Below are positions 8,834 through 24,819 of a stretch of 40,000 bases of DNA, piece by piece; positions within the stretch are counted from its first letter, which is position 1; every line of letters starts with the position of its first letter. The notes beneath the pieces are model-generated. The model did no database searches and was not told where the DNA came from. It saw only the letters and a program-made list of their open reading frames with translations. The DNA comes from Methylophilus sp. 14 (GTDB lineage Bacteria > Pseudomonadota > Gammaproteobacteria > Burkholderiales > Methylophilaceae), in the NCBI RefSeq assembly GCF_015354345.1, contig NZ_JADKYS010000003.1:52856-92855 (forward strand), in the 5' to 3' direction. The position numbers and the translations under genes are program-made.

Positions 8834-10494
8834 TTACGCTACTCAAAAATGCCAAAGTGATAGACCCTGCCAACCACAAAGATGGCGTGGTGCAGGATAT
8901 TTATATTCGCGATGGCCGTATTATTGCCAAACCGGCTGACAGTGAAAAAATCGGCCAGGTGCATGACCTGAATGGCAAGATCGTCATGGCTGGTGCCATA
9001 GACATGCACAGCCATATTGGTGGCGGCAAAGTGAATATTGCGCGTATGCTGCTGCCAGAATATCAGGCCATGCGTCGCCTGGAAGAGCCGGAAGCACATA
9101 TCTGCGGCGCCAACTGTAGTCATCATGCGACACCGAATACCACCGATACTGGCATGCGCTATATCGAAATGGGTTACACCGCCGCATTTGAGCCTGCCAT
9201 TTTGGCCGTGAATGCGCGTCAGGCACATATGGAAATGGGTGATACGCCCATGATCGACAAAGGCGGCTACGCCATGTTGGGCAATGACGATTACTTTTTA
9301 CGTTTGCTCAGCCAGAATGCTGACCAGAAAACCATTAACGATTACGTGGCCTGGACGCTGCATGCGACACAAACCATAGGCATTAAAGTGGTCAATCCGG
9401 GCGGTATTTCTGCCTTTAAATTCAATGAGCGTCGCCAGGATTTAGACCAGCAGCACAGCCATTACCACATCACGCCGCGCCGTATTTTGCAGGCCTTAAG
9501 CCGTGCGGTGAACGAGATTGGCATTGCCAAGCCTTTGCATGTGCACTGTAATAACCTGGGCGTGGCGGGTAACTTCCAGACCACTTTAGACACCATGGGC
9601 GCAAGCGATGGCTTACCCATGCATCTCACGCATATCCAGTTTCACAGCTACGGCACAGAGGGCGATAAAAAGTTTTCTTCTGCCGCGGCCAATATTGCTG
9701 AGGCGATCAATAGCAATAAACATATCACTGCCGATGTTGGCCAGATCCTGTTCGGGCAAACCGTGACGGCTTCTGGCGATAACATGATGCAGCATTTAAA
9801 TGCCAAAGTCGCCAACCCGAAAAAGTCAGTGATTATGGACATTGAATGTGATGCCGGTTGTGGCGTGGTACCGTTTAAATATCGCGACCAGAACTATGTG
9901 AATGCCTTGCAGTGGGCGATTGGCCTCGAGGTGTTTTTAAGTGTAGATGACCCTTGGCGCGTGTTTTTAACCACTGACCACCCGAACGGCGCACCGTTTA
10001 CCAGCTATCCGCACCTGATTCGCTTGCTTATGGACAAAACCTTCCGTAACGATGCGTTTGACAAGCTCAACCTGGATGCGCAAGCCATGAGCAACCTGAA
10101 GTCGCTGGACCGTGAATATAGCTTGTATGAAATCGCCACCATGACACGTTCAGCGCCAGCCAAGTTGATCGGCCTGCAAGACCGTGGGCATTTGGGCGTA
10201 GGTGCGGCGGCTGATATTACGGTGTATACCGACCAGGCCGACAAAGAAGCCATGTTTGCCAAGCCAGACCTGGTGTTTAAAGACGGCGAGCTGGTGGTGA
10301 AAGAGGGCAAAGTGGTGAAGGTGGTGTGGGGTGCAACGCATACTGCCAAACCAGCATTTGATGTGGGCGTGGAAAAAGACATCAAACAGTATTTTGACCG
10401 CTACCACACCATGCAAATGAACAACTTTAAAATTTCGAATGACCATATTGCGGAAGATGGCCGCAACCATGTCATTAACCATGCGCAGGGGTAA
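8830..10494 (+). CDS. fhcA: formyltransferase/hydrolase complex subunit A (amidohydrolase, FmdA/FwdA homologue)
   Basis: 554 aa. Amidohydrolase metal motif (IDMHSHIGGG). ATGA overlap with fhcB. Confidence 0.85.
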   Translation: MITLLKNAKVIDPANHKDGVVQDIYIRDGRIIAKPADSEKIGQVHDLNGKIVMAGAIDMHSHIGGGKVNIARMLLPEYQAMRRLEEPEAHICGANCSHHATPNTTDTGMRYIEMGYTAAFEPAILAVNARQAHMEMGDTPMIDKGGYAMLGNDDYFLRLLSQNADQKTINDYVAWTLHATQTIGIKVVNPGGISAFKFNERRQDLDQQHSHYHITPRRILQALSRAVNEIGIAKPLHVHCNNLGVAGNFQTTLDTMGASDGLPMHLTHIQFHSYGTEGDKKFSSAAANIAEAINSNKHITADVGQILFGQTVTASGDNMMQHLNAKVANPKKSVIMDIECDAGCGVVPFKYRDQNYVNALQWAIGLEVFLSVDDPWRVFLTTDHPNGAPFTSYPHLIRLLMDKTFRNDAFDKLNLDAQAMSNLKSLDREYSLYEIATMTRSAPAKLIGLQDRGHLGVGAAADITVYTDQADKEAMFAKPDLVFKDGELVVKEGKVVKVVWGATHTAKPAFDVGVEKDIKQYFDRYHTMQMNNFKISNDHIAEDGRNHVINHAQG

Positions 10495-13126: not shown

Positions 13127-13257
13127 CGCTATTCAAGTCAGTCGGCATACGCATTTTTTGTGAGGAACTATTTAAAATAATTATATTTATGCTAAATTAA
13201 ACCGCTACATTAGACCACCAAGACATCAGTCAAAAGCTCTCAAATAAGGAGATTGTG

Positions 13258-15441
13258 ATGAAGTGCCCTGCAATACTGGCCAATGAACAATCAAGGTTGC
13301 AAGCCTTGTATGACCATGGATTGAATAGTGAAGGTTTAGTAAAAAGCCTGGATCCCGTCGTCCAGATTGCTGCGCGTATGTTTGATATGCCGGTGGCTGC
13401 CGTCAATATGATAGGTAGCGATCATGTCTTTTTTGCCGCGGTGACTGGGGTCGGTGAAGTAGATATGCGGCGCGACGTTTCTTTTTGTGCCCATGCCATT
13501 AATCAGGTTGAGGTGATGGTGGTGCCCGACGCCAGGCAGGATGAGCGTTTCCATGATAATCCACTCGTCACTGGCGATACTCAGTTGCGGTTTTATGCCG
13601 GCGTCCGTTTGCTTTCGCCCGATGGCCTCGCACTGGGCGCCTTGTGTGTGGTCGATAGTCGGCCACGGTTCGATTTCTCTTCCGATGACCAGCGGCGCTT
13701 GCAAGAGCTTGCGCAAATGGTTTCCGACCGGCTGGAGCTCAAGCGTATTGAAACCCAGACCAATCGTTCCCGCCCGGATTTTGCTTCTTATGCCGGGCAC
13801 TCTTCCACGCCTGTGGTCTGGTTTAATGACCACGGACAAATCACCGCCTGGAACACAGCCGCCGCCCAATCTCATGGTTACAGCCTGGCTGAGGGTATAG
13901 GCCAGCCGGTTGAAATGCTGCTGGTTGAGCGTGACCGCGCAACTTTCCGCGATATGATCTCGCGCGCAGTGGTCGCCGGGTCGCTGGACGACCTTGATGT
14001 GTCTTTTGAAGCACGTGGTTTGCGCAAAGGGGGCGGCGAGTTTCAATTAGGCTTCTCTTTGTTTGGCTGGAAAGCCGACGGTGAAATGCGCTTTGAGGTC
14101 ATCCTGAAAGACATTACTGCGCAGCGATTGGCCGAGTCAGAGATTGATCAGCAGAACACGCTGGACCCACTCACTGGCATGGCCAACCGTGCCAGATATT
14201 ACCGGGTGGTCGAGGACGCGATTATCGCCAATATCCCCATCGCAGTGCTCATGATTGATTTGGATAGCTTTAAAGATATCAATGACACCTTGGGGCATGC
14301 CTGCGGCGATCACATCCTTAAAGAAATGGCACACCGCCTGAGCCAGATGGTCGGCACGGCCGGTGTCGTGGCACGCATAGGCGGCGACGAATTTGCGATT
14401 GTGCTGCTGGATGTCGCCAGCCCAGAGTATGCCTTAGCACTGGCTGAGCAGGCCATTAACCTGATTGCACAGCCGATTGTGATACATGAAGACGAAGTGC
14501 GTGTGATTGCGAGCTGCGGTGTGGCGCTGGCACCGATACACGCACACGAAACCCTAGAACTGGTTAGCGATGCCGATTTGGCCTTGTTTAAAGCCAAAGC
14601 CATGGGGCGAGGGCGCGCCTGTGTATTCAGCCCGGTATTACGCCTCGAGGCCGTCGCCAGACGCTTGTATGCCATGGAGTTGTATCGTGCAGTAAATGAA
14701 GGCGAGTTTTTGCTCTATTACCAGCCACAGGTTAACCTGACCACTGGCACAGTGACCGGTGCTGAGGCCTTAATCCGCTGGCGTCACCCCAAGCGCGGCA
14801 TCCTGGCGCCGATTTCGTTTTTGCCTGCGCTTGAAAATGGCACGCTGGCCGCTACCGTCGGCGCCTGGGTGATGGATGAGGCCTGTGCGCAAGTGGCATA
14901 TTGGCGCAGGCATACTGGCGCTGAGCTGCGTATTGGCGTCAACCTGTTTGGGGCACAGTTTCAGGCGGGAGACTTATATGCCGAGGTTGTTTCCACCCTG
15001 GCAAGACATGGTCTGCCGCCTTCAGCACTGGAGCTGGAAGTCACAGAAAATATCGCACTCGATGGCGACGAAGTGGTGCTGAATATCCTGCGCCGACTTA
15101 AGGAATACGGCGTTGGGATTGCGTTTGATGATTTTGGTACCGGATACGCATCACTCAGTTTGCTCAAAACCTACCCACTAACGCGCATTAAAATTGACCG
15201 CAGCTTTGTGCAAGGCATGCTGGAGCAAAAGAAAGACGATTCCGTCGTCAGTGCGACCTTGGATATTGCGCATGCTTTTGATCTGCAAGCTATTGCAGAA
15301 GGCATAGAGACCCAGCCGCAATATGAGTATTTACGCGCCAAAGGCTGTGAAGAAGGGCAGGGGGAATTGTTTGGCAAGCCCATGCCTGCAGAGCAGTTCG
15401 CACATTTGATTGGGATGAACCAATACTCATCTGCGGCTTAA
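13258..15441 (+). CDS. GAF-PAS-GGDEF-EAL signalling protein (c-di-GMP cyclase/phosphodiesterase)
   Basis: About 727 aa. GAF-like N-terminus, a PAS segment, a GGDEF motif (RIGGDEFAIV), and an EAL domain (EALIRW, DDFGTGYASL, KIDRSF, EGIET). ATG at 13258 is preferred over GTG at 13255 because of AAGGAG spacing. Confidence 0.9.
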   Translation: MKCPAILANEQSRLQALYDHGLNSEGLVKSLDPVVQIAARMFDMPVAAVNMIGSDHVFFAAVTGVGEVDMRRDVSFCAHAINQVEVMVVPDARQDERFHDNPLVTGDTQLRFYAGVRLLSPDGLALGALCVVDSRPRFDFSSDDQRRLQELAQMVSDRLELKRIETQTNRSRPDFASYAGHSSTPVVWFNDHGQITAWNTAAAQSHGYSLAEGIGQPVEMLLVERDRATFRDMISRAVVAGSLDDLDVSFEARGLRKGGGEFQLGFSLFGWKADGEMRFEVILKDITAQRLAESEIDQQNTLDPLTGMANRARYYRVVEDAIIANIPIAVLMIDLDSFKDINDTLGHACGDHILKEMAHRLSQMVGTAGVVARIGGDEFAIVLLDVASPEYALALAEQAINLIAQPIVIHEDEVRVIASCGVALAPIHAHETLELVSDADLALFKAKAMGRGRACVFSPVLRLEAVARRLYAMELYRAVNEGEFLLYYQPQVNLTTGTVTGAEALIRWRHPKRGILAPISFLPALENGTLAATVGAWVMDEACAQVAYWRRHTGAELRIGVNLFGAQFQAGDLYAEVVSTLARHGLPPSALELEVTENIALDGDEVVLNILRRLKEYGVGIAFDDFGTGYASLSLLKTYPLTRIKIDRSFVQGMLEQKKDDSVVSATLDIAHAFDLQAIAEGIETQPQYEYLRAKGCEEGQGELFGKPMPAEQFAHLIGMNQYSSAA

Positions 15442-15451
15442 TCCATACGAT

Positions 15452-16435
15452 TTAAATCACATCCAGCGGGCTGGCCACGCCACGCCCGCCAACATTCACC
15501 ACTTTGGTATATAGCATGGTTGTACTTTCATCAGCGTGTCCCATGAGTCGCTGCACGGTTTTAATATCCTGGCCGCCTGCAAGCAAATGTGCGGCAAAGC
15601 TATGCCGCAGTGTATTAGGCGTCACCTGCTTTTTAATACCTGCCTCTGCAGCCACCTTTTTCACCACACGCTGTATCGGCTTCTCATCAGCGTGATGGCG
15701 ATATACCAGGCCGGACTGTTGTTCGACCGACAACCTGCTGGATGGAAACACATATTGCCATAGCCAGTCCTTGCCTGAGTCAGGATGTTTGATTGACAAG
15801 CTAGCGGGCATGCGTACCTCACCAAAGCCCTTGGCTAAATCCTCGGCGTGCAACGCCGCCACAGATTGTAAGTGCGTCTTTAATGGGTTAACCAAACTCA
15901 CAGGCAACAACGTGATGCGATTTTTATGCCCTTGGTCATCACGTACCAAAATTTCCAGCCTGGCAAAATCGATATCCGCTACCCGTAAACGCAAGCACTC
16001 CATGACCCGCAAGCCGCTGCCATAGAGCAAGCTCACCAACAACCACAGATGACCATCCAGCCGTGAAAGGATTGCCTGCACCTCTTGTGTGCTCAGCACC
16101 ACCGGCAACTGCTTTTTCGCCACCACTTTGGTGACGTTTTCAAGCGCAGGCAATCGTTGCTCCAACACCTCGTCATACAAAAACAGCAGAGCGCTTTTCG
16201 CCTGATTTTGCGTGCTAGCAGACACATTGCGTGCCACCGCCAAATGCGTTAAAAAGTCCTCTACCTCAGCCACGCCCATATCACGCGGATGTCGCTTGCC
16301 ATGGTGCAAAATATATCGTTTAATCCATTGAACATAAGCCTCTTCAGTACGCTTGCTGTAGTGCTTCACTCGCAAGCGCTCTACAATAGAAGGAAACAAC
16401 TTTGGTGCTGGCTTAACCTCAGGTGTGTTTTCCAT
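15452..16435 (-). CDS. intI: integron integrase
   Basis: 327 aa tyrosine recombinase. Box I (GLRVMECLRLRVADID), box II (LRHSFAAHLL...GHADESTTMLYTKV) and the integron-specific extra segment (ALHAEDLAKGFGEVRMPASLSIKHPDSGKDWLWQYVFPS). SD AGGAG sits 7 nt upstream of the ATG. No frameshifts or internal stops. Confidence 0.93.
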   Translation of the reverse strand: MENTPEVKPAPKLFPSIVERLRVKHYSKRTEEAYVQWIKRYILHHGKRHPRDMGVAEVEDFLTHLAVARNVSASTQNQAKSALLFLYDEVLEQRLPALENVTKVVAKKQLPVVLSTQEVQAILSRLDGHLWLLVSLLYGSGLRVMECLRLRVADIDFARLEILVRDDQGHKNRITLLPVSLVNPLKTHLQSVAALHAEDLAKGFGEVRMPASLSIKHPDSGKDWLWQYVFPSSRLSVEQQSGLVYRHHADEKPIQRVVKKVAAEAGIKKQVTPNTLRHSFAAHLLAGGQDIKTVQRLMGHADESTTMLYTKVVNVGGRGVASPLDVI

Positions 16436-16572
16436 AGCGCAACTCCTAAAATCAGGTGTAATATAAAGATACTCCTCATTGATTTTATTATGATAAATAA
16501 ATTTATAAATTTTATAGCCCCCAGACTAAATAAAATATTATTGTCGATTTTGGGGTCTAATTAACGTTAGGC
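16436..16572 (+). other. attI region with recombination core GTTAGGC (16566-16572); presumably also carries the PintI and Pc promoters
   Basis: AT-rich spacer between the intI start and the first cassette ORF. It ends in AACGTTAGGC, the same right-hand core as the attC sites. Promoter hexamers are not confidently assignable in this AT-rich stretch. Confidence 0.7.
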
Positions 16573-16580
16573 ATTCAATC

Positions 16581-16823
16581 GTGGCAAACATATTGTTTTG
16601 GATTGGCGTAGCAATTGCAGCCTTGGGGGCGATTTTATTATCGCCAATTGCTGACTTATTGCCTGTTGGCTTTTGGGCTTCGTTGAAAAATCATTTTCAG
16701 GGTAATAGTTCGCATTTTATGAGAGTGGTCCCTACTGAGAATGATAGTTCATTCATTTATATTCTTATTGTGCTGGGTATAGTGTTGGTTATTGTTAGCT
16801 ATGTATTTAAAGCTAGTAAGTAA
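16581..16823 (+). CDS. cassette 1: small two-TM membrane protein, unknown function
   Basis: 80 aa, GTG start 9 nt after the attI core. Two hydrophobic helices. Confidence 0.6.
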   Translation: MANILFWIGVAIAALGAILLSPIADLLPVGFWASLKNHFQGNSSHFMRVVPTENDSSFIYILIVLGIVLVIVSYVFKASK

Positions 16824-16825
16824 AA

Positions 16826-16936
16826 GCCTAACTCATCAGTCAAGCGGGACTGGCGAAAAGGTTATTTTATGAAGTGTTTATTAATAACGAGGGTTGAGCA
16901 ATCATTGTCGCCAGCCCCTTACTTCAAACGTTAGCC
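16826..16936 (+). repeat. attC 1 (long 111-bp variant)
   Basis: GCCTAAC-tcatcagtcaagcgggactggcg...(about 50 nt insert)...cgccagccccttacttcaaac-GTTAGCC. Confidence 0.85.
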
Positions 16937-16939
16937 CAC

Positions 16940-17581
16940 ATGAAAACCAGACCTCTCCGCAGCTTAGTCATGCAAGATGTGCGAAAGCACTATCTCCAGC
17001 GAATTGCTGTGGGAAAGGAACTTCGGCGGCTGCTCAATGCTGGCTCAATTGACACCTATGTTTTGCTTGCACTTGGAATCACAGCACCAGAAGGAAACTA
17101 CAGCGCGTGGGAACACAACCTAGGCTCTCGCATTCTTAGTCAAAGAACACCAGAGCCCGTGTTTTCCCTTGCAGCCGAGCTTGCGTCCTGCAATACGGCA
17201 ACCGGAATGCTCGACACAATTTATGCGGCGGCTATACCGTGGCTGAAGGTGAGCGTGGGTTCTGAAATGGCGATGATGTTGAAGCCTTCAACATTCTGGG
17301 TCGCAAACACGCGCACCGTTTGGGCGCATTTGCTCCTCAAGTACGATTTTGATTATGCCGTCGCCGATGAAGCGCTACGGCTATACCGAGTCGATGACCA
17401 AGACTCAAAAATGGCGTACCAGATTTGGAAGGCCATATATCACGAGATGGGCAGTAGCGTTGTAGCGCTTACTGCTCTCGGTAGTAGCGAAGCAGAGCAA
17501 CAGAGTGTTACGGCTGGCAAGAAACCCAACCTTTGGTTTGACGCAATCGCAAATGCGCTATACGAACAGCATGTGGGCTAA
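16940..17581 (+). CDS. cassette 2: soluble hypothetical protein (213 aa)
   Basis: ATG 4 nt after the attC1 core. The stop TAA lies inside the R'' core of attC2. Visibly more GC-rich than neighbouring cassettes. No family recognised. Confidence 0.7.
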   Translation: MKTRPLRSLVMQDVRKHYLQRIAVGKELRRLLNAGSIDTYVLLALGITAPEGNYSAWEHNLGSRILSQRTPEPVFSLAAELASCNTATGMLDTIYAAAIPWLKVSVGSEMAMMLKPSTFWVANTRTVWAHLLLKYDFDYAVADEALRLYRVDDQDSKMAYQIWKAIYHEMGSSVVALTALGSSEAEQQSVTAGKKPNLWFDAIANALYEQHVG

Positions 17582-17644
17582 CCCTGCGGTCAACGCAGAC
17601 CTTGCGCATAAAGCCGCGCAAGGCCGGTTACCTTTACGTTAGGG
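17576..17644 (+). repeat. attC 2 (69 bp, different sequence family)
   Basis: GGCTAAC-cctgcggtcaacgcagaCCTTGCGCataaagccGCGCAAGGccggttacctttac-GTTAGGG. Same core logic, but the inner arms are unrelated to the other nine sites. Confidence 0.8.
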
Positions 17645-17937
17645 GTCTTGTTATTTCGCCGTGGTTAAGTTTGTGTGCCTGGTAGGTTTTTGCAGTTTGT
17701 GAGTGCAATTGTTTTAGGTAACGTTCTGGTTTGGCGCGTAATGTTAGGGTAGGGGTTTTGGCAGTCTGCCGTAATGCGTTTGCCCCACCTCTGGCGTGGC
17801 AAGCCGCGGTCTGATGGTTTGTTGTTGGGGCTTGAGCGAGTTTTTTGGTTCTGTGTTTAATTGGTTGCTTTGCGGTCTTTGCAGAGCTTTTTTATGGTTG
17901 AGGTGCGGTATGTGTGTAGTCTATTGTGGCTTTTTAT
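17645..17937 (+). other. cassette 3: ORF-less, G+T-skewed cassette body
   Basis: Bounded by attC2 and attC3. The only track ORF (17796-17996) starts at GTG, runs through attC3 and has a composition-driven Cys/Leu/Phe/Gly/Trp content. No - strand ORF of 60 aa or more. Confidence 0.55.
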
Positions 17938-17998
17938 CCCTAACCTATCAGTCAAGCGGGACTGGCTTTCAGCCAGCCCCTTACTTCAAACGTTAGGC
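17938..17998 (+). repeat. attC 3
   Basis: CCCTAAC-ctatcagtcaagcgggacTGGCtttcaGCCAgccccttacttcaaac-GTTAGGC (61 bp). Confidence 0.88.
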
Positions 17999-18009
17999 AA
18001 ACAGAACAA

Positions 18010-18390
18010 ATGCAAAATATAAGCAATCGTGGTTGGTATCTCTACTTCTTTGTATATTTGTTGTTATTCATATCGCTATCAATATTCACAATTTATAAAG
18101 GCCAAGATTTATCAATTATTTCTTTAAGTTTAGATGTGTTGGCTCTAATTGGGCTTTATAAGTTTGCTCGCACAAATACCGTCAGCTTTTCATTCATATG
18201 GGTAATCATTGCCTCCTTCTTTACAGCTAGGCTTTTATTTGTTTGGTATATCCTCATACCCAATATATATCCATGGCTCTCAATGTTTGAACAGATGGTT
18301 TCACTTTGGGGGCTAGTTGGCTCCGCTTTTCAGGTGCCAGTCGCTTATGCACTATGGCGTTATAGTTTTCGTAAGGAACAAAATGCCTAA
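18010..18390 (+). CDS. cassette 4: four-TM membrane protein, unknown function
   Basis: 126 aa, AT-rich and strongly hydrophobic. The stop TAA lies inside the attC4 R'' core. Confidence 0.7.
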   Translation: MQNISNRGWYLYFFVYLLLFISLSIFTIYKGQDLSIISLSLDVLALIGLYKFARTNTVSFSFIWVIIASFFTARLLFVWYILIPNIYPWLSMFEQMVSLWGLVGSAFQVPVAYALWRYSFRKEQNA

Positions 18391-18444
18391 CCCATCCATC
18401 AAGCGGGACGCGCTAAAGCGCGCCCCTTATGTCAAACGTTAGAA
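18385..18444 (+). repeat. attC 4
   Basis: GCCTAAC-ccatccatcaagcgggacGCGCtaaaGCGCgccccttatgtcaaac-GTTAGAA (60 bp). Confidence 0.88.
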
Positions 18445-18448
18445 CTTT

Positions 18449-19024
18449 ATGAACGAACTATTGATAAAGCAAAATAAAGGTGCCTTAAAAACACTGCCTG
18501 TCATGTTTTTATTGGTTTTTACTTTTTTCACTATTTCAAGTTATCTGGGTTCTGGATTTTCTGCTCAAACTCAAGCAATGCTAGCGTTTACAATATTTTT
18601 TACAGTTTTTGCATTATGGTTTCTACATATACACTCTAAACGGCAAGTTCTAATTAACAAATCAACCGAGCAAATCGAAATTACTGAGTTTTCTATTTTT
18701 GGTACTCAAAAATACAAAAACTACCCCTTAGGCAACTTCAGCTCAATCCGGTCATACATCACGCATGGTAAAGGTGCAAGAAACATAGTTGAGCTTGTTA
18801 CTTCAGATGGTAATCGAGGTCTGTTTTTATCCAGTTTTTTACCATGTGGTGGTAAAAATTTCTGGTCACTTGAAATTGAAACTGAAAATCCAGAAGCTGC
18901 TCTTTTGGCATCACAAGTGGCAGCATTTCTATCAATAAAAAACATAGGCTTTATTGGGCACAAGTTTGCTACTAACCAAGTAGGTATTGAAAATAATGCT
19001 AAATTTATCAGTAATATGTTCTAA
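18449..19024 (+). CDS. cassette 5: membrane protein with two N-terminal TM helices and a beta-rich C-terminal domain
   Basis: 191 aa. The topology resembles bacterial PH-like (YdbS/T-type) membrane proteins, but that is a guess. The stop TAA lies inside the attC5 R'' core. Confidence 0.7.
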   Translation: MNELLIKQNKGALKTLPVMFLLVFTFFTISSYLGSGFSAQTQAMLAFTIFFTVFALWFLHIHSKRQVLINKSTEQIEITEFSIFGTQKYKNYPLGNFSSIRSYITHGKGARNIVELVTSDGNRGLFLSSFLPCGGKNFWSLEIETENPEAALLASQVAAFLSIKNIGFIGHKFATNQVGIENNAKFISNMF

Positions 19025-19129
19025 CCCATCCATCAAGCGGGACTGGCGAAAACAAGCATCTATGGAAACAATTTTAATAACAATGGCTGTGTCACCATTA
19101 TCGCCAGCCCCTTATCTCAAACGTTGGGC
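19019..19129 (+). repeat. attC 5 (long 111-bp variant)
   Basis: TTCTAAC-ccatccatcaagcgggactggcg...(about 50 nt insert)...cgccagccccttatctcaaac-GTTGGGC. Confidence 0.85.
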
Positions 19130-19148
19130 ATATTAAAAGGAGAATTAA

Positions 19149-19769
19149 GTGGGCTTTCATATATCTTGGGTAGCTGTAAATGGAAAATCACCTGCACAGG
19201 TTTGCTCGGAATTAAATTTACAAGACACCGATGAGCAAAGCCCTTACCCAGAAACTGATGTAGATGCACTCAAGCTCAATTCTGGATGGTACCTTTTACA
19301 TTTCAACGACCCATTACCGCCAGAGCTAGAGCTTGCGATTCTAGGCCCACTATCAATGGGAGCTGAAGTTGTAAAGTGTGTTATTGAAGAAACCTCTATG
19401 GTCTCAATGGCAAGCTATCTCTCCAACGGTAAAGAGAAATGGTCTATCGTCCATGACTCAGAACAGGGACTTACGCATCTAGATGTAAGTGGAGATCTTC
19501 CTGATTGCTACGAGGAAATTAAAAATCGATTGCTAGCTCAACTGAATGCGGATGAAGAGCCATGTGATTACTTATTTGATGTGCCCGCCGAGGTCTGTAA
19601 AAGCATCACTGGGTTCCGTCATGACGATGTTAGAGAAGATGAGGATAGTAATCCATTTGCGGTCATGGAACGGTCAAGCCAAGCCAAAGCGTCTGCTGCT
19701 TCAACAAACAATATCGAAAGTGATATTACAGATTCACAATCTACCAAACCTTGGTGGCGGTTTTGGTAA
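19149..19769 (+). CDS. cassette 6: acidic soluble hypothetical protein (206 aa)
   Basis: GTG start with the only canonical SD in the array (AAGGAG, 6 nt spacing). Shares an EKWSIV.D patch with cassette 8. No family recognised. Confidence 0.7.
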   Translation: MGFHISWVAVNGKSPAQVCSELNLQDTDEQSPYPETDVDALKLNSGWYLLHFNDPLPPELELAILGPLSMGAEVVKCVIEETSMVSMASYLSNGKEKWSIVHDSEQGLTHLDVSGDLPDCYEEIKNRLLAQLNADEEPCDYLFDVPAEVCKSITGFRHDDVREDEDSNPFAVMERSSQAKASAASTNNIESDITDSQSTKPWWRFW

Positions 19770-19770
19770 T

Positions 19771-19830
19771 GCCCAACCCATCCATCAAGCGGGACGCGCT
19801 AAAGCGCGCCCCTTATGTCAAACGTTAGAG
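19771..19830 (+). repeat. attC 6
   Basis: GCCCAAC-ccatccatcaagcgggacGCGCtaaaGCGCgccccttatgtcaaac-GTTAGAG (60 bp). Confidence 0.88.
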
Positions 19831-19837
19831 CGCAACT

Positions 19838-20153
19838 ATGTCGTTAGCTTCATCAGAACTGATCGCATATTACTTATCTGGTAAGCCAATGGTTTGCGAG
19901 CTAGATATAAATCCATACCTTTGCGAGTTCTGGCCGAAAGCAGAGTTAAATCAATATAATTTAGAGTATGAAGTGCCACAGTACGCGCCAGGGGTTTTTT
20001 GGCTTTGCCACAAACGGTGGCGGTGAGATGTTCGCTATTTCGCCCACGGGTTCAATAGTATGTTTACCTTTCATTGGTATGGATCCAGCAGTGGCTTTAA
20101 CTATAGCGCCATCTTGGTCAGCTTTTGAAGGCATGCTGCAAAATGCGCTCTAA
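19838..20153 (+). pseudogene. cassette 7: SMI1/KNR4 (SUKH-1)-like immunity-type protein, interrupted by a +1 frameshift
   Basis: Track ORFs 19838-20026 and 19968-20153 are consecutive frames of one gene. Removing one T from the G4T6 run at 19991-20000 gives a single 104-aa product, ...QYAPGVFGFATNGGGEMFAISPTGSIVCLPF..., which matches the SUKH core pattern. The stop TAA lies in the attC7 R'' core. Confidence 0.7.
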
Positions 20154-20206
20154 CCCATCCATCAAGCGGGACGCGCTAAAGCGCGCCCCTTATGTAAACG
20201 TTAGGG
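20148..20206 (+). repeat. attC 7
   Basis: CTCTAAC-ccatccatcaagcgggacGCGCtaaaGCGCgccccttatgtaaac-GTTAGGG (59 bp). Confidence 0.88.
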
Positions 20207-20210
20207 CCAT

Positions 20211-20561
20211 ATGACCAAAAAATTTAAACTTTCAGCCGATGAAATAAAACCTTTGGTTAGCGGCTTCGGGGCATGCTTCGCATCCGACATGATTACGGTT
20301 GATGGGCATCCTGTTCGTTTCATGTATAGAGAAACACCGGAGCGCGATGTTGACAGTGGGTGGCGATTTTTTTCCGGTTATGAAAGTGATGAGTTCGCCA
20401 ACACCCCAAGCAATATAGGCATTTATGGTGTAAACACTATTGCGAACTACGACCCAAGCATCATTCCAGTTCTTGAAGCACCTATCGGAAGTGCATTTGA
20501 GAAATCAAATGATGGAGAAAAGTGGTCTATCGTTACTGATTGGGCACCATCTGATGAATAA
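20211..20561 (+). CDS. cassette 8: DUF2185/Imm33-like small soluble protein
   Basis: 116 aa with YRE...DSGWRFFSG.E...Y..NTI.NYDP. The DSGW motif and size match my recollection of DUF2185 (Imm33 immunity family). Not verified by search. Confidence 0.65.
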   Translation: MTKKFKLSADEIKPLVSGFGACFASDMITVDGHPVRFMYRETPERDVDSGWRFFSGYESDEFANTPSNIGIYGVNTIANYDPSIIPVLEAPIGSAFEKSNDGEKWSIVTDWAPSDE

Positions 20562-20579
20562 TTGTTTATTTACTAAAGG

Positions 20580-20640
20580 CCCTAACCCCTCAGTCAAGCG
20601 GGACTGGCTTTCAGCCAGCCCCTTACTTCAAACGTTAGCC
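20580..20640 (+). repeat. attC 8
   Basis: CCCTAAC-ccctcagtcaagcgggacTGGCtttcaGCCAgccccttacttcaaac-GTTAGCC (61 bp). Confidence 0.88.
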
Positions 20641-20644
20641 ATAT

Positions 20645-21229
20645 ATGCAATCAAACGCTTCAGTTTTGCTTAGTCTATCGGTGCTTTTAAGCATTCCTGT
20701 ATTTGCTCCATTTGTGGCGTCGATTGAAAGATTTAAGTATTTTGGTGTTGCGCGAGACATAGTGCAAAGGTACGTACTTATTTCAACCTTTGTTATTTTC
20801 ATTGCTGCTGCTTATTTTGTTGGGCTTCGGTTTCAATCCAATGCCGCAAATATCGTTTTACAATTCATTGCTCTTGGCTCTTACTTAAATTTAGCAGGTT
20901 TTGTTTTTACTATTAAGCCTCGCTCACTCGGCTTATTACTTGGTCTTGCAGTTCTGGTGTTGTCATTATTAATAGCTCTAGGCAGTATTTTGTCTTTTGC
21001 CATTGATGGAAAAACAAACCAGATAAAATTAACGCCCACTTTTTACTGTGAGGTGAATCAATTTGGCGTTGCTGGTAGCCAAGGTGGTCTAAGTGTAAGT
21101 ATTTATCGGTATTTAGGTTTTGGCATAAGCCGTAGATTACTTCACGATACTTACCTGGACGAGATCAAATACCCATTTCAAAACCAAGAGGGTGCATGCA
21201 GTTATGCAATGGCCAAAGTTAATGGTTAA
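20645..21229 (+). CDS. cassette 9: polytopic membrane protein, unknown function
   Basis: 194 aa with about 5 hydrophobic segments and a short soluble C-terminal tail. The stop TAA lies inside the attC9 R'' core. Confidence 0.7.
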   Translation: MQSNASVLLSLSVLLSIPVFAPFVASIERFKYFGVARDIVQRYVLISTFVIFIAAAYFVGLRFQSNAANIVLQFIALGSYLNLAGFVFTIKPRSLGLLLGLAVLVLSLLIALGSILSFAIDGKTNQIKLTPTFYCEVNQFGVAGSQGGLSVSIYRYLGFGISRRLLHDTYLDEIKYPFQNQEGACSYAMAKVNG

Positions 21230-21283
21230 CCCATCATTCAAGCGGGACTGGCTAAAGCCAGCCCATTAATTCAAACGTTAGGG
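21224..21283 (+). repeat. attC 9
   Basis: GGTTAAC-ccatcattcaagcgggacTGGCtaaaGCCAgcccattaattcaaac-GTTAGGG (60 bp). Confidence 0.85.
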
Positions 21284-21289
21284 TTAAAT

Positions 21290-21811
21290 GTGAGAATAGT
21301 CACATGTGAGAAATGCCATCTCAGCATCCCTGAATCGGATAAGTCTTGGGATTTAGCGAATCAATTCAATATCTGTCCAAACTGTAAAAATACTCTAAGT
21401 CATTTTGCTAGCATACCGAGTACAGCTAAAACAAAAAGCACTATGTTTTTTGCGCATACAAAGCACCGTGCTTTTATAACCTTTACTTTTTTGGGGCCGC
21501 TTGTTGGTGCCGTTCCCTTTTTACTAATTACACCTAGTGCATATAAAGAAGGCTTCATAGTTATTATCTTTGCCTACTTAATCGGAATAATCCCAGCCTT
21601 TTTGGCTGGATTGGTATTTAACTCATTAATGCCAAGTTACGCTCAATCAAAACGACATCAAGAAATACACATTGGCGCATTGTCTGGTCTACTAGCGGTT
21701 TTACCAATAATTGTTATATTCGGTATTACTAAATCTTTAATGCTATTGATTGTTATTGCTTTAATCGGCGTAATCTCAGGGGGCATTTGTGGTCACGCTT
21801 CCAAACCCTAA
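21290..21811 (+). CDS. cassette 10: N-terminal zinc-ribbon (CxxC...CxxC) fused to a four-TM membrane domain
   Basis: 173 aa, GTG start. CEKC-x(19)-CPNC, then hydrophobic helices. The stop TAA lies inside the attC10 R'' core. Confidence 0.65.
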   Translation: MRIVTCEKCHLSIPESDKSWDLANQFNICPNCKNTLSHFASIPSTAKTKSTMFFAHTKHRAFITFTFLGPLVGAVPFLLITPSAYKEGFIVIIFAYLIGIIPAFLAGLVFNSLMPSYAQSKRHQEIHIGALSGLLAVLPIIVIFGITKSLMLLIVIALIGVISGGICGHASKP

Positions 21812-21865
21812 CACTTCTATCAAGCGGGGAGTGTTAAAGCGTGCCCGTTATGGCAAACGTTAGAG
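21806..21865 (+). repeat. attC 10 (divergent member of the family)
   Basis: CCCTAAC-acttctatcaagcggggagtgttaaagcgtgcccgttatggcaaac-GTTAGAG (60 bp). Confidence 0.8.
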
Positions 21866-21868
21866 CTT

Positions 21869-22240
21869 ATGAAATCACCAGTTCGGATTGTAGGAGTTAC
21901 ACTACTTGTTGGGGTTAGCTTCATAGCTGGAAGGTTCTATGATGAGCTATCAAACTTTTGGCAAAAACCTGTGGTTGTTCACATCACGAACGAGTCGGAG
22001 CAACCCTTGAAATCTATAGCTATTTCTTATTCTGGATATAAAACAAAAGGCACAATTAAAGTCGAACCTGAGACGTCTGAAAAAATGATAACTATTCGAT
22101 TCTATCAAGCCGGTGAAGGTAGCTTTACAATCGAAACAGAGCTTGAAAATGGCACAGTTTTAAAAGATAACGAGGGTTATATTGAGGGTGGTTATTCATT
22201 CAATAAAGTAGTAACTGCCACAGAGATTAAAAACAAATGA
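21869..22240 (+). CDS. cassette 11: secreted or membrane-anchored beta-rich protein, unknown function
   Basis: 123 aa. N-terminal signal anchor (VRIVGVTLLVGVSFIAG), then alternating beta-type sequence. Confidence 0.65.
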   Translation: MKSPVRIVGVTLLVGVSFIAGRFYDELSNFWQKPVVVHITNESEQPLKSIAISYSGYKTKGTIKVEPETSEKMITIRFYQAGEGSFTIETELENGTVLKDNEGYIEGGYSFNKVVTATEIKNK

Positions 22241-22250
22241 TGTGTATATG

Positions 22251-22284
22251 TGCTAACCCATACCCCTTGTGTCAAACCTTAGCC
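22251..22284 (+). repeat. attC relic (internally deleted, mutated right core CTTAGCC)
   Basis: TGCTAAC-ccat/accccttgtgtcaaac-CTTAGCC aligns to both ends of attC4/6/7. About 26 central nt are missing and GTT has become CTT. Confidence 0.7.
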
Positions 22285-22673
22285 TCCACGTGACATATTT
22301 AACTTTAGCCTACATTCATCTCGCAACTGTGATGCTAGCCTTTGTGCTTGGCACGCTTTTGTTATTGCAGAAAAAGGGCACTGTGCTGCACCGTTTAGTT
22401 GGCAAGTTTTTTATGGTGCTGATGTTGTTAACTGCGCTGATTGCCTTATGCATGCCTGCGCAGATTGGCCCAACTCTTTTAGGGCATTTTGGTTTTATCC
22501 ATTTGTTTTGTTTGTTGATTTTTTATGCAGTGCCGTCGGCTTATTTTGCAATAAGGCAAGGGAATTTAGCCAAACATAAAGCCAATTTAATTGGTGTTTA
22601 TGTGGGTGGCCTTTTAATTGCGGGGGCTTTTGCATTTTTGCCCGGGCGGTTGTTGCACTCATGGTTGTTTTAA
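22269..22673 (+). CDS. DUF2306-like four-TM membrane protein
   Basis: 134 aa (GTG at 22269; an alternative GTG at 22290 lies outside the attC relic). Small polytopic protein whose His-containing helices resemble DUF2306. The start is uncertain. Confidence 0.6.
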   Translation: MSNLSLHVTYLTLAYIHLATVMLAFVLGTLLLLQKKGTVLHRLVGKFFMVLMLLTALIALCMPAQIGPTLLGHFGFIHLFCLLIFYAVPSAYFAIRQGNLAKHKANLIGVYVGGLLIAGAFAFLPGRLLHSWLF

Positions 22674-22808
22674 TTGGCAATGCTGGGCAAACCATCCATA
22701 CCGACCCACCGCTTGAGGATATGGCACCTCCATCATGTTAAGCACACCAGAGTGGACGCCTGAAAGCATAGGCTTTACTATTGGTGGCTCTTGCATTTAT
22801 GCCAATGA

Positions 22809-23153
22809 GTGAGGTGTTGCGTGGCTATTCAGTTTTTACCGATTCTTAAGGCAGTGGCGCCTTATATTGCGCAGGTGGCGACGGCGGCAATCCCTGCGTT
22901 TACTGCCAAGCCTGAGGCCGCCAAGGTGGATCCTGTATTGACCAGCCAGATCGAGGAGTTGCAGGCGGCGACGATTCAGAATGCAGAGTCTATTCATTTG
23001 CTGGCAGAAAAAATGCAGCTGGCGATTCAGGCGTTGGATGAGGCAGGGCAGGCGGCAAAAAAACAGGTGGCGGCTTATAAGACGATGCTGTTTGTTTCGT
23101 TTGGCTTGTCGATGACGTCAGCGCTGCTTTGTATTTATTTGTTATTGCGCTAG
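22809..23153 (+). CDS. hypothetical coiled-coil protein with a C-terminal TM anchor
   Basis: 114 aa with a non-ATG start (GTG). Ala/Gln-rich helical region, then a terminal hydrophobic helix (MLFVSFGLSMTSALLCIYLLL). No family recognised. Confidence 0.45.
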   Translation: MRCCVAIQFLPILKAVAPYIAQVATAAIPAFTAKPEAAKVDPVLTSQIEELQAATIQNAESIHLLAEKMQLAIQALDEAGQAAKKQVAAYKTMLFVSFGLSMTSALLCIYLLLR

Positions 23154-23182
23154 TTGCAAATGATGAAATGGAGCTTTCAACC

Positions 23183-23551
23183 ATGTCTAATCTCACCGTC
23201 ACAGAAATCAAAGCCTTTGTGCCCGCCAAAAACTTTGAGCTTTCCAAGCAGTTTTATAAAGACATGGGCTTTACCATGGCGTCAGAAGGTGGCGGTGTGG
23301 CTTATTTTCATTACGCGCACGCGAGTTTTCTGTTGCAGGATTTTTGTGCTGAAAACCTGGCCGAGAATTTTATGATGCATCTGCTGGTGCAGGATGTGGA
23401 TGCCTGGTGGGACAACATACACCATAGCGGCATTATTCAGACTTATGGCGTTAAGGTATGGCCAATTCAGCTACAAAGCTGGGGCATGCGTGATTTTTGT
23501 ATCACCGACCCCTCAGGAGTGTTGTGGCGCATTGGGCAGAATGTGGATTAA
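23183..23551 (+). CDS. VOC (glyoxalase/bleomycin-resistance) family protein
   Basis: 122 aa from the internal ATG at 23183 (SD GGAG 9 nt upstream). The pattern F..AK.F..S..FY..LGF....e.......f..........h....V.DVD.W......G......WG.R.F...DP.G.LW is typical of small VOC proteins. Confidence 0.7.
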   Translation: MSNLTVTEIKAFVPAKNFELSKQFYKDMGFTMASEGGGVAYFHYAHASFLLQDFCAENLAENFMMHLLVQDVDAWWDNIHHSGIIQTYGVKVWPIQLQSWGMRDFCITDPSGVLWRIGQNVD

Positions 23552-23643
23552 TCCCCGGTGTGAGAGGCTGCAGCATTCGAACATGAAGAGCGCTTCAGCC
23601 GCGGCGCGTGTGACTACATTCTAGCCAGGCTTTTAAAGATTCA

Positions 23644-24309
23644 TCAGGTAACATCATCTTTAAGCTTATTCACAAGATCCAGGCATTGTTCATAATTCAG
23701 GCTGAAGTTTATTTTTTCTATGGCGTTGAAAATAGGCAGCAAGAATTGTTTTCGATGTTGGCATTGCTTGGTAAATTCGATGATGTTTTTTTGAAATATC
23801 TCTTTATTGTTTAAAATGTCGTCATAGTGTTTTTCGATGACTAATGCGAGATCAAGTAAATCACGTGCGGTGGCAGTATTGCCGCGATGCCAGATCTTTT
23901 TTGCAACGATTTCAACCGGGGTTTGTAATTTGACCTCTCTGCCGAGCACGACGTAGTGATTGAAGGGCTGTTGAGTGAGCGGCGTTGAGGCAACAAAATC
24001 TATTTCACCTTCTGCGAAGTTTAGCTTCAGAAATTCAGCCCCCTCTGCGTACTCCCTTGTAAGCGCCTCTGCAGGGCCACCTAGTCTAGGATTCAAATAG
24101 CCCAAAAATTGCGCTTCTGAGACAAAAATATCAATGTCTTTACTGATGCGATGTGCATAGTAAAACATCAGCACAGTGCCGCCGCCAAGTGTCCATTCCG
24201 GCGTATGCATGCCGGGGTTTTCCGCGGCAACTGCATCTAAGAGGGAATATGCTTTTGCAAGCAATGTCTGCCATGGGCCTGCTGGAAAACTTAAAGGTAA
24301 ATTATTCAA
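23644..24309 (-). CDS. Pol-beta superfamily nucleotidyltransferase, AbiEii/AbiGii (DUF1814)-like putative toxin
   Basis: NTase motif GGGTVLMFYYAHRISKDIDIF (G[GS]-x12-DxD). Size and layout resemble AbiEii toxins. TTG at 24309 is preferred (SD GGAG 5 nt upstream, 8-nt overlap with the upstream gene's stop). The track ORF extends to a TTG at 24351. Confidence 0.65.
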   Translation of the reverse strand: MNNLPLSFPAGPWQTLLAKAYSLLDAVAAENPGMHTPEWTLGGGTVLMFYYAHRISKDIDIFVSEAQFLGYLNPRLGGPAEALTREYAEGAEFLKLNFAEGEIDFVASTPLTQQPFNHYVVLGREVKLQTPVEIVAKKIWHRGNTATARDLLDLALVIEKHYDDILNNKEIFQKNIIEFTKQCQHRKQFLLPIFNAIEKINFSLNYEQCLDLVNKLKDDVT

Positions 24310-24787
24310 TGTTGCTCCAGAACTGATTGGGGGAGTGAATCTCACGTGCAATGGATGATAAGTGACGCCAAATCAATTGCGGCTTTACATTGTTTTTATT
24401 GGCAATCTGCTTGACTGCTCCGGCAACAATCGCGGTCGGCGTTTCATCTATCAGATGCACCACTTGCGCTTCAAATCCCGGGGCAATGATGCCCTTTAGC
24501 ATGACTTCTTCTAACGAGTGTATATCCATGGCGCGCGCATAACTCGTATTGATATTACCAAGGGCGATCTTGGCATAGTCTTTCTGATGTTTGCTGGAGA
24601 AAATCGGTAAATCAATCACGTTAGCAATGGCTGAGAGTTTTACTATCCCAATATCTCCAACATTCCCCTTTTCTAAATTGACGATGGTGACTCTGGAGAC
24701 GTGAGAAGCCGCAGCAAGCGCCTTCTGGCTTAGGCCGGTAGCCTTCCTCTCTCTTTTGACCAACATGCCAATCGTCATAATGTTCAT
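24302..24787 (-). CDS. XRE-family HTH protein with an uncharacterised ~100-aa C-terminal domain (putative antitoxin/regulator)
   Basis: HTH: LVKRERKATGLSQKALAAASHVSRVTIVNLEKG. The first ATG is at 24787 (another at 24778). The track ORF begins at a TTG at 24802. Overlaps the NTase gene. Confidence 0.7.
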   Translation of the reverse strand: MNIMTIGMLVKRERKATGLSQKALAAASHVSRVTIVNLEKGNVGDIGIVKLSAIANVIDLPIFSSKHQKDYAKIALGNINTSYARAMDIHSLEEVMLKGIIAPGFEAQVVHLIDETPTAIVAGAVKQIANKNNVKPQLIWRHLSSIAREIHSPNQFWSNIE

Positions 24788-24819
24788 GTTTTTATTGTGC
24801 AATACTTTCTTTAAAGTGT

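Follow-up and report, generated by a model that had tools for sequence, protein, structure and literature searches.

The question raised by this locus is whether a recombinase gene and the short palindromic repeats beside it form a genuine, complete integron or something that merely resembles one. The locus lies in a 40,000-nt stretch of DNA from Methylophilus sp. 14 (contig NZ_JADKYS010000003.1, positions 52,856 to 92,855), a methanol-utilising bacterium; this whole stretch is referred to as the window, and coordinates given without a locus name are positions within it. The original prediction, made by a model from the sequence alone, had described 15452-22284 as a complete chromosomal integron with eleven cassettes of almost entirely unknown function. 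Our estimate of the probability that Methylophilus sp. 14 carries a complete, sedentary chromosomal integron here is about 95%. The locus has an identifiable integron integrase (IntI), attI site and attC sites, an array whose limits could be drawn, a fixed position with variable content genus-wide, and one cassette that has moved as a discrete unit.

An integron integrase divergent from attI

The intI gene (15452-16435, minus strand) encodes a 327-aa protein in an uninterrupted open reading frame (ORF). This protein scored 413.7 bits on the NCBIfam model TIGR02249 'integron integrase' (cutoff 265), carried the Pfam domains PF13495 and PF00589, and fell far under the cutoffs of the XerC, XerD and XerA models, with Xer family matches of 120-164 bits. 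Its best match among PDB sequences was VchIntIA/IntI4 (2A3V; 263 bits), aligned gap-free over residues 15-325. The XerA alignment was split into residues 18-190 and 248-312 and skipped residues 191-247, which form the IntI-specific additional domain; the continuous 2A3V alignment over the same residues confirmed the predicted presence of this domain. In IntIs this domain measures ~36 aa and lies near patch III. Within it (approximately residues 191-247), K216, W226 and F230, the counterparts of K219, W229 and F233, were invariant among 10 IntIs. Homologous Methylophilus proteins are already named 'integron integrase' in NCBI and JGI sources, and a standard integron finder would be expected to call the Methylophilus sp. 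14 locus.

As predicted, intI and an attI site are divergently arranged. The attI region (16512-16572, plus strand) consists of a conserved AT-rich stretch that closes with AAC-G|TTAGGC, the crossover lying between 16566 and 16567; the intergenic region at 16566 ends in TCTAATTAAC-G|TTAGGC. The site was near-identical in four aligned array-bearing loci (the window and the Methylophilus loci L051, L052 and L005, introduced below), and identity was lost right past the GTTAG core.

Ten attC sites, nine with one consensus

Ten full attC sites follow attI, all co-directional and on the plus strand: attC1 (16827-16937; 111 nt, with a long loop), attC2 (17577-17646; of a divergent sequence family), attC3 (17939-17998), attC4 (18386-18445), attC5 (19020-19131; with a long loop), attC6 (19772-19831), attC7 (20149-20207), attC8 (20581-20640), attC9 (21225-21284) and attC10 (21807-21866). 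Each is bounded by ..YTAAC or ..CAAC and by CGTTRRR, and overlaps or closely trails the stop codon of a single ORF. The AAC...GTT pair was present in 10/10 sites (lengths 59-112 nt), in agreement with the inverted cores RYYYAAC...GTTRRRY, which in attC sites lie 57-141 nt apart. The intI start codon lies 392 bp from attC1, and the ten sites are spaced 364-708 bp apart. IntegronFinder defines a complete integron as intI plus at least one attC within 4 kb (PMC4889954), and the locus has both within that distance and on the appropriate strand. The eleven palindrome-ended, co-directional units of the original prediction were recovered as ten full sites, but the eleventh proved to be a deleted remnant with a CTT core that scored 12.1 bits.

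Nine of the ten sites shared one consensus, as had been claimed, with attC1 and attC5 carrying a loop insertion of ~50 nt and the seven sites of 59-61 nt showing a mean column identity of 86%. The sequence of attC2 differs while its architecture, traced by hand only, is the same. When folded, most bottom strands formed an R box of 5 bp, then a spacer without pairing, then an L stem whose 3' (L'') arm bears three bulges (T, G, G), and finally a terminal loop, a bottom-strand attC architecture that has been described before (PMC5371416). Minimum free energy (MFE) folds gave the full architecture in 6/10 sites, and constrained folds gave the same L stem and bulges in attC6 and attC5 but not in attC9 and attC10. 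With AAC:GTT pairing enforced, the folding probability (pfold) of attC1 to attC10 was, in order, 0.81, 0.005, 0.93, 0.84, 0.007, 0.37, 0.92, 0.82, 0.07 and 0.03, reaching at least 0.8 at five sites, and the bottom strand was more stable than the top strand in 9/10 sites. Bottom-strand folding with extrahelical bases was borne out by the MFE architecture of six sites, by the bulges and by covariation, whereas pfold was low at four sites.

A covariance model (CM) was built from the seven short homogeneous sites only, with attC1, attC5 and attC2 held out. The model recovered all three, with scores of 64.2 bits for attC1, 54.7 bits for attC5 and 25.2 bits (E 2e-4) for attC2, and this recovery excludes a chance origin of the repeats. 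Elsewhere in the 40-kb window only weak opposite-strand echoes at four known sites appeared at E<0.5, with filters on or off. Among 54 sites from six sources, standard pairs made up 94.6% of pair cells as compared to 34-46% with slid partners, in an alignment fitted to the model, which somewhat inflates pairing; a seven-site MAFFT alignment gave a matching picture. Compensatory changes were seen at seven pairs (for example GC/UA/CG at columns 25:94 and CG/GC/UA at 26:93), and the covariation score of the 54 sites was 0.232 as compared to 0.077±0.007 for shuffles. Rfam scans at gathering and E-value thresholds returned no match; to our knowledge Rfam contains no attC family, hence this null is uninformative.

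A fixed locus with variable content across Methylophilus

The intI gene occupied the identical chromosomal slot in eight further Methylophilus loci (L002, L003, L004, L005 and L051-L054), drawn from M. methylotrophus DSM 46235, M. medardicus, Methylophilus sp. OH31, a Logan assembly (with the integrase of sp. QUAN), three metagenome-assembled genomes and one JGI contig. Housekeeping genes (fhcB/A/D/C, a rhodanese gene, ndk and rlmN) make up the flanks. In all eight loci intI lay beside the fhc/rhodanese cluster, and wherever sequence covers the other side of the array, genes of the glyoxalase family were found there. This synteny speaks for the sedentary chromosomal type, and the 86% identity of the short attC sites agrees with the claim that they are homogeneous.

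The content of the slot varied widely. Model-positive attC sites numbered 0 in each of L002, L004, L053 and L054, 9-10 in L005, 10 in L051 and ~17 in L052 (L003, with too little sequence on the array side, was left out of the counts), and a contig of Methylophilus sp. Leaf414 (L042), which begins inside an array, held at least 15. None of the window cassette proteins was found in the L005, L051 and L052 arrays. The L051 IntI is 90% identical to that of the window and the flanks are more than 90% identical, yet the cassettes are unshared. Only cassette 6 was shared with Leaf414, where window 19021-19827 matched L042 4724-5536 at 93.9% nucleotide identity. The limits of the match coincided exactly with the outer ends of attC5 and attC6, between otherwise unrelated neighbours, which is direct evidence that an attC-bounded unit moves as a module.

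The four loci with zero attC sites (L002, L004, L053 and L054) had an intact intI under purifying selection and are empty platforms, In0-like in kind. Their attI core was mutated in 4/4 cases, with the GTT core gone. The mutated cores of these loci read AATCTTAGG, GATCCCTAG, CATTTTGGA and AAGATTAAA, within attI regions at ~9863-9880 (L002), ~9837-9880 (L004) and ~9836-9880 (L053 and L054).

On the other side, a GAF-PAS-GGDEF-EAL gene (13255-15441, plus strand) abuts the 3' end of intI. This gene was present in the window, L001, L003 and L051-L054 and absent in L002, L004 and L005, making both sides of intI structurally variable.

Limits of the array

Nucleotide homology (blastn) between the window and its relatives ended at 16570-16575, just beyond the attI crossover, and resumed against L005 only at 22743. 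The variable region therefore runs from 16567 to ~22742 and includes a DUF2306 gene. The original prediction had closed the array at 22284; the variable region instead extends to ~22716-22742 and takes in a fossil twelfth cassette. Cassette 11 (21860-22278, plus strand) encodes a 123-aa protein with an N-terminal anchor (21869-22240) and ends in the attC11 remnant (22252-22286, plus strand), in which the L'' arm and loop are deleted and the core reads CTT in place of GTT (12.1 bits, E 0.7); this remnant showed no fold. Fossil cassette 12 (22279-22742, plus strand) carries the DUF2306 membrane protein (22269-22673; PF10067, E 1e-13) and a degenerate terminal attC remnant (~22686-22716, plus strand), which did not fold and was recognisable solely through its alignment with the truncated terminal attC of L005. 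With filters off, the CM found no further attC past 22286 apart from the weak attC11 remnant (22252-22284). We read cassettes 11 and 12 as fossil cassettes.

The distal chromosomal flank (22743-23553, plus strand), comprising a 114-aa gene and a glyoxalase-family gene, lies outside the mobile array and was 94.5% identical at the nucleotide level to L005 and 75% to L004. The conserved genes distal to the arrays (window 22743-23553; L051 2700-5400; L052 1-1300; L053 6500-9200) are small, co-oriented and of cassette-typical families: the 114-aa gene and a glyoxalase/bleomycin-resistance-like gene in the window, and AHSA1, SMR transporter, GNAT acetyltransferase and glyoxalase genes in the relatives. 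These may be ancient cassettes that lost their attC sites. Just past the conserved flank (23644-24802, minus strand), two overlapping genes encode a nucleotidyltransferase toxin of the AbiEii family (PF08843, E 4e-15) and its HTH_3 partner. At the equivalent position of L005 the pair is absent, the glyoxalase gene and the next gene being adjacent there, and the pair is a strain-specific insertion outside the integron.

Predicted assembly and orientation of the array

Recombination of attI with folded attC bottom strands by IntI is established integron biology, and we infer the same for this locus: IntI, transcribed leftwards, would recombine double-stranded attI (G|TTAGGC, 16566) with the folded attC bottom strands. 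Promoterless cassettes would enter beside attI in a single orientation and displace older cassettes distally, and the drop of pfold toward the distal end is what would be expected from insertion at attI. The outcome would be the present array, ten cassettes with complete attC sites and then two fossil cassettes with decayed sites (cassette 11 and the DUF2306 cassette 12), expressed from a putative cassette promoter (Pc). GC skew was positive on the plus strand throughout, placing the attC bottom strands (minus strand) on the leading-strand template. Under the replication-orientation rule for attC bottom strands (PMC5371416), this would be the low-excision orientation typical of sedentary integrons.

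Evidence against the reading and alternative explanations

Several observations weigh against a complete, sedentary integron. The original prediction of an intact IntI held for the uninterrupted ORF, the TIGR02249 score and the IntI-specific domain, but not for the catalytic boxes, which are not fully canonical. The catalytic set comprises R143, K171, N274, R277, H300 and Y309 and departs from the full R-K-H-R-H-Y set at N274, normally His, the counterpart of IntI1 H277. The N274 codon lies at ~15614-15616, the box-II motif reads PNTLRH where the canonical motif is PHTLRH, and H277 was reported invariant in 182 Shewanella IntIs (PMC9229058). From the key IntI1 residues listed in the same study, the counterparts of E121, R146, K171, K219, W229, F233, R280, G302 and Y312 were kept. 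Further departures were YTK for YTH after the nucleophile and DQGHKNR for GKGxKxR, and the ALER motif of the additional domain reads SLSI, a motif that takes its canonical form in only 52% of Shewanella IntIs (PMC9229058). On the same side stand the low pfold values of attC2, attC5, attC9 and attC10; the lack of any LexA box (CTGT-N8-ACAG) near intI, the total in the window lying under chance expectation; and a promoter scan that found no Pc on the cassette strand and one weak PintI-like site. Lastly, only 10 live attC sites are present. Cury et al. 2016 regarded integrons as sedentary with >19 attC sites or with presence in 100% of a species' genomes (PMC4889954), and the count falls below the first of these values; sedentary status is supported by conserved synteny across the genus and by attC homogeneity.

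The first alternative accepts a real integron but holds it to be frozen: the change of the box-II His to Asn would cripple IntI, and differences between arrays would have arisen through homologous attC-repeat recombination, natural transformation or deletion, and not through catalysis by IntI in this lineage. Replacement of the catalytic His by N274, along with the change of YTH to YTK, would fit such a loss, but Asn-type intI was full length in every genome examined (all eight genes) and showed a dN/dS of 0.06-0.20 as compared to 7 relatives, which argues that the protein may still be functional. Also in favour of the frozen state, Asn stood at the box-II position in 56, and the canonical His in the other 64, of the 120 closest IntI cluster representatives, with Methylophilus and Methylotenera types among them. 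Asn-type loci were both empty and array-rich: the four cassette-less loci (4/4) combined an Asn-type IntI with degenerate attI cores, whereas the window, L051 and L052, with 10, 10 and ~17 attC sites, held wholly different cassettes although their IntIs are 80-90% identical. Decay is seen in the distal attC sites, but five sites still fold well. Cassette shuffling through transformation has been documented (PMC12614218), but the transfer of cassette 6 as a precise attC-bounded unit counts against the frozen state. We consider a frozen integron unlikely. Judged from these comparisons, N274 is a clade-wide feature of a gene under purifying selection rather than a private lesion, and it does not look like pseudogenisation, since Asn is common to the clade, intI is full length, dN/dS is low and Asn-type loci can be rich in cassettes. 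Under the preferred reading of a complete sedentary integron, IntI would be active at present with the N274 substitution. If the Asn-type IntIs are active, nature would have provided integron integrases that do without the box-II histidine, a novelty independent of any cassette function.

A mobile integron that was inserted into the chromosome on a transposon, integrative and conjugative element or plasmid would account for the small array (10 sites) and for the foreign composition of attC2 and one cassette. It is at odds with the housekeeping flanks (fhcABCD, ndk, rlmN and the rhodanese gene), with an insertion locus shared by the eight further Methylophilus loci, with the homogeneity of the attC sites and with nine intact cassette ORFs that matched no NCBIfam family, resistance models included. 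In addition, IntI scored 305.6 bits on PRK15417 (NF011946), the sole equivalog-level integron-integrase model in NCBIfam, under its cutoff of 435. This score and the syntenic housekeeping flanks place the locus outside mobile integron classes 1-5, and we consider a mobile origin very improbable. The reading as a generic XerC/D-type recombinase beside unrelated palindromic repeats, of the repetitive extragenic palindromic (REP) or bacterial interspersed mosaic element (BIME) kind, could draw on the weak Xer matches, each far under its cutoff, and is refuted by the passing of the IntI-specific model and the additional domain, by repeats that are co-oriented, each ending one ORF, and start exactly at the GTT core beside the recombinase gene, by their R boxes, unpaired spacer and bulged bases on the correct arm, and by the lack of such repeats in the other 33 kb of the window.

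Cassette cargo

The complete integron reading leaves the question of what the cassettes, all on the plus strand, encode. The original tally of seven membrane, two immunity-like, two soluble and one non-coding cassette sums to 12 for 11 cassettes; hydropathy analysis gave six membrane proteins within 16567-22278 (small membrane proteins in cassettes 1, 4, 5, 9 and 10 and a single N-terminal anchor in cassette 11), and the fossil cassette 12 also encodes a membrane protein. The remaining cargo consists of an orphan Imm33 gene, a frameshifted SUKH-like gene, two soluble proteins whose families are widespread but unannotated (cassettes 2 and 6) and one apparently non-coding cassette. Cassette GC was 0.35-0.46 (0.52 in cassette 2 and 0.48 in cassette 3) as compared to 0.52 for the rest of the window. 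The 5' leaders were 9-25 nt long, most ORFs starting 9-17 nt past the GTT crossover, and a clear Shine-Dalgarno sequence was recognised only in cassette 6 (AAAGGAG).

As predicted, no known resistance determinant was detected, the nine intact cassette ORFs having given no NCBIfam match in a search that included resistance models. The same ORFs had no match in PADLOC-DB 2.0 at E<0.01, where only the AbiEii protein outside the array matched, weakly, and no Pfam match above the gathering score except Imm33. Imm33 was thus the one family to pass a curated threshold, in line with the description of the cargo as almost entirely of unknown function. Any function suggested here for the other cassettes is putative.

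Cassette 1 (16567-16930) encodes an 80-aa protein with two transmembrane segments (16581-16823). Cassette 4 (17993-18438) encodes a 126-aa membrane protein with 3-4 transmembrane segments (18010-18390), cassette 5 (18439-19123) a 191-aa protein with an N-terminal hairpin of two transmembrane segments (18449-19024), cassette 9 (20635-21277) a 194-aa polytopic membrane protein (20645-21229), and cassette 10 (21278-21859) a 173-aa protein that has 3-4 transmembrane segments and, at its N-terminus, a CxxC...CxxC zinc ribbon (21290-21811). Cassette 3 (17639-17992) is G/T-rich and has no convincing ORF, only ORFs of 66 aa and 45 aa. A structured RNA was considered for cassette 3 and rejected, there being no Rfam match and fold z-scores of -0.4 and -0.6. 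The claim of one non-coding cassette agrees with this lack of a credible ORF or RNA signal, and cassette 3 is apparently non-coding or of unknown content.

Cassettes 7 and 8 had both been called immunity-like. For cassette 8 (20201-20634) this was confirmed: its 116-aa protein (20211-20561) matched PF09951 at E 5.7e-34 and 116.2 bits (threshold 25.4) over profile positions 1-82 of 87. On this profile match it is predicted to be a bona fide orphan Imm33 immunity gene, the only firm family assignment among the cassettes. Cassette 7 (19825-20200) holds a SUKH-1/SMI1_KNR4-like gene that is frameshifted at a T6 run (19995-20000), which splits it into ORFs of 62 aa and 61 aa in different frames. With the frameshift removed, the 104-aa product resembled SMI1_KNR4 (E 7.5e-4) with a score of 20.5 bits, which even after repair falls below the PF09346 gathering threshold of 25.4 bits. 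The likeness of cassette 7 to SUKH-1/SMI1_KNR4 is weak, and its frameshift may mark a true pseudogene or else stem from slippage or from an error in the assembly.

Cassettes 2 and 6 as orphan families

The proteins encoded by cassettes 2 and 6 have counterparts of 100% identity among the NCBI proteins of Methylophilus sp. 14. Both had been described as soluble and without a recognised family, and this description was sustained, neither having a Pfam domain or model or a significant PDB match. Structure prediction with AlphaFold2 succeeded in yielding models with a pLDDT of 95 and 87, respectively, but these brought no significant PDB match.

Cassette 2 (16931-17638; GC 0.52) encodes a 213-aa all-helical soluble protein (16940-17581). 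The search gave more than 90 family members, none with a Pfam domain, and the high-confidence model had no significant structural or profile match in the PDB. Homologues occur in accessory contexts, including an Acinetobacter islet with an integrase fragment, a Dyella MobA element and a Bradyrhizobium site beside caspase-like and HEPN genes. A further homologue lies among attC-like repeats in a 1.85-Mb Vibrio replicon that is chromosome-sized although labelled a plasmid in PLSDB. Cassette 2 was probably imported from another integron lineage, as suggested by its GC of 0.52 as compared to 0.35-0.48, its divergent attC and the pfold of 0.005. The idea of an HhH-GPD DNA glycosylase began from a by-eye likeness of GVGSE...VANTR and was unsupported: the top Foldseek matches, to AGOG and MUTYH, had E>2 and TM-scores of 0.25-0.34, the PDB-sequence profile search was null, and no family member matched PF00730.

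Cassette 6 (19124-19824) encodes a 206-aa acidic soluble protein (19149-19769). Its family comprised 2091 cluster representatives (50% identity) at E≤1e-3, without a Pfam model, and was found as a cassette in Methylophilus plus one other assembly. The AlphaFold2 model had no confident PDB match; weak fold matches to YubB/Api92-like proteins (TM-score 0.25-0.35) and weak DUF6461 matches in 3/66 family members are leads only. Kinship with SUKH or Imm33 was rejected (hhalign probability 0.2%), and phage records contained no match to cassette 6. The family C-terminus is a disordered tail, rich in Ser and Thr, with a conserved KPWWxFW motif at its end, and in one member (P0014) the domain is duplicated in tandem. 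A homologue 54% identical to cassette 6 in Acidovorax sp. 62 (L043 6450-8615) is found where a P2-like prophage or prophage remnant ends, within 1.6 kb of its portal gene. This position corresponds to the cos-proximal hotspot for defence genes in P2-like phages (PMC9122126).

Among the orphan cassettes there might be one or more undescribed single-gene conflict systems (anti-phage, anti-defence or anti-toxin), but we hold this proposal to be doubtful. The best candidate is cassette 6, with its large family lacking a Pfam model, its confident predicted fold without a PDB match, its occurrence as an integron cassette in at least three lineages and the prophage setting in Acidovorax sp. 62. Of the V. 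cholerae cassettes of unknown function that have been tested, ~18% showed anti-phage activity (10.1101/2024.07.02.601686). The suggestion that the array could be the home of an undescribed system is reasonable but only a prior, resting on that V. cholerae rate. Cassettes 2 and 6 and the small membrane proteins form a short list for phage-defence or interbacterial-competition screens.

Comparison with known systems

The integron itself is ordinary in kind, a gene-capture platform of typical build whose cargo is mostly without assigned function. As an integron the locus adds little; its value lies in the comparative series across Methylophilus, in which nine loci carry one platform at one position and a tenth contig (Leaf414) has the same attC family. 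The series spans empty arrays with mutated attI to ~17 cassettes, with hardly any shared content. The Asn-type IntI clade under purifying selection provides a natural experiment on platform maintenance, decay and turnover outside Vibrio.

By the definitions of PMC4889954, the loci L002, L004, L053 and L054 (intI without attC) fit In0, and the Leaf414 contig would be called a cluster of attC sites lacking an integrase (CALIN) because the contig starts inside an array. The window, having intI and attC, is neither and represents a complete integron.

Arrays of immunity genes beside a recombinase are found in another setting. The rAID-type clusters of Bacteroidales, attributed to Ross et al. 2019, are reportedly recombinase-associated arrays of orphan immunity genes. 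Like them, the present locus places a tyrosine recombinase beside an array whose units are separated by repeats and include orphan immunity genes against polymorphic toxins (here Imm33 and SUKH-like). Unlike them, its platform is a true integron with IntI and attC, and recognisable immunity genes make up only 2/12 cassettes.

The closest likeness in layout is to the Vibrio cholerae superintegron (VchIntIA, VCR) and to the Xanthomonas and Shewanella integrons, in which intI is divergent from attI and the cassettes are co-oriented, promoterless and of a single ORF. The present IntI aligns with VchIntIA/IntI4 (2A3V) end-to-end, additional domain included (263 bits), but differs from VchIntIA and IntI1 by Asn at H277, SLSI for ALER, DQGHKNR for GKGxKxR and YTK for YTH. 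Sedentary chromosomal integrons and this locus have in common homogeneous lineage-specific attC sites, a fixed locus, hypervariable content with most cassette functions unknown, and attC bottom strands on the leading-strand template. The present array is far smaller, with 10 live sites as compared to up to hundreds, its attC sites are short (59-61 nt) and of a Methylophilus-specific sequence family, and its IntI has Asn at the box-II His. It also differs in having no toxin-antitoxin cassette within the array, the AbiEii/HTH pair lying outside, and in that several congeners carry the same platform empty, with a degenerate attI.

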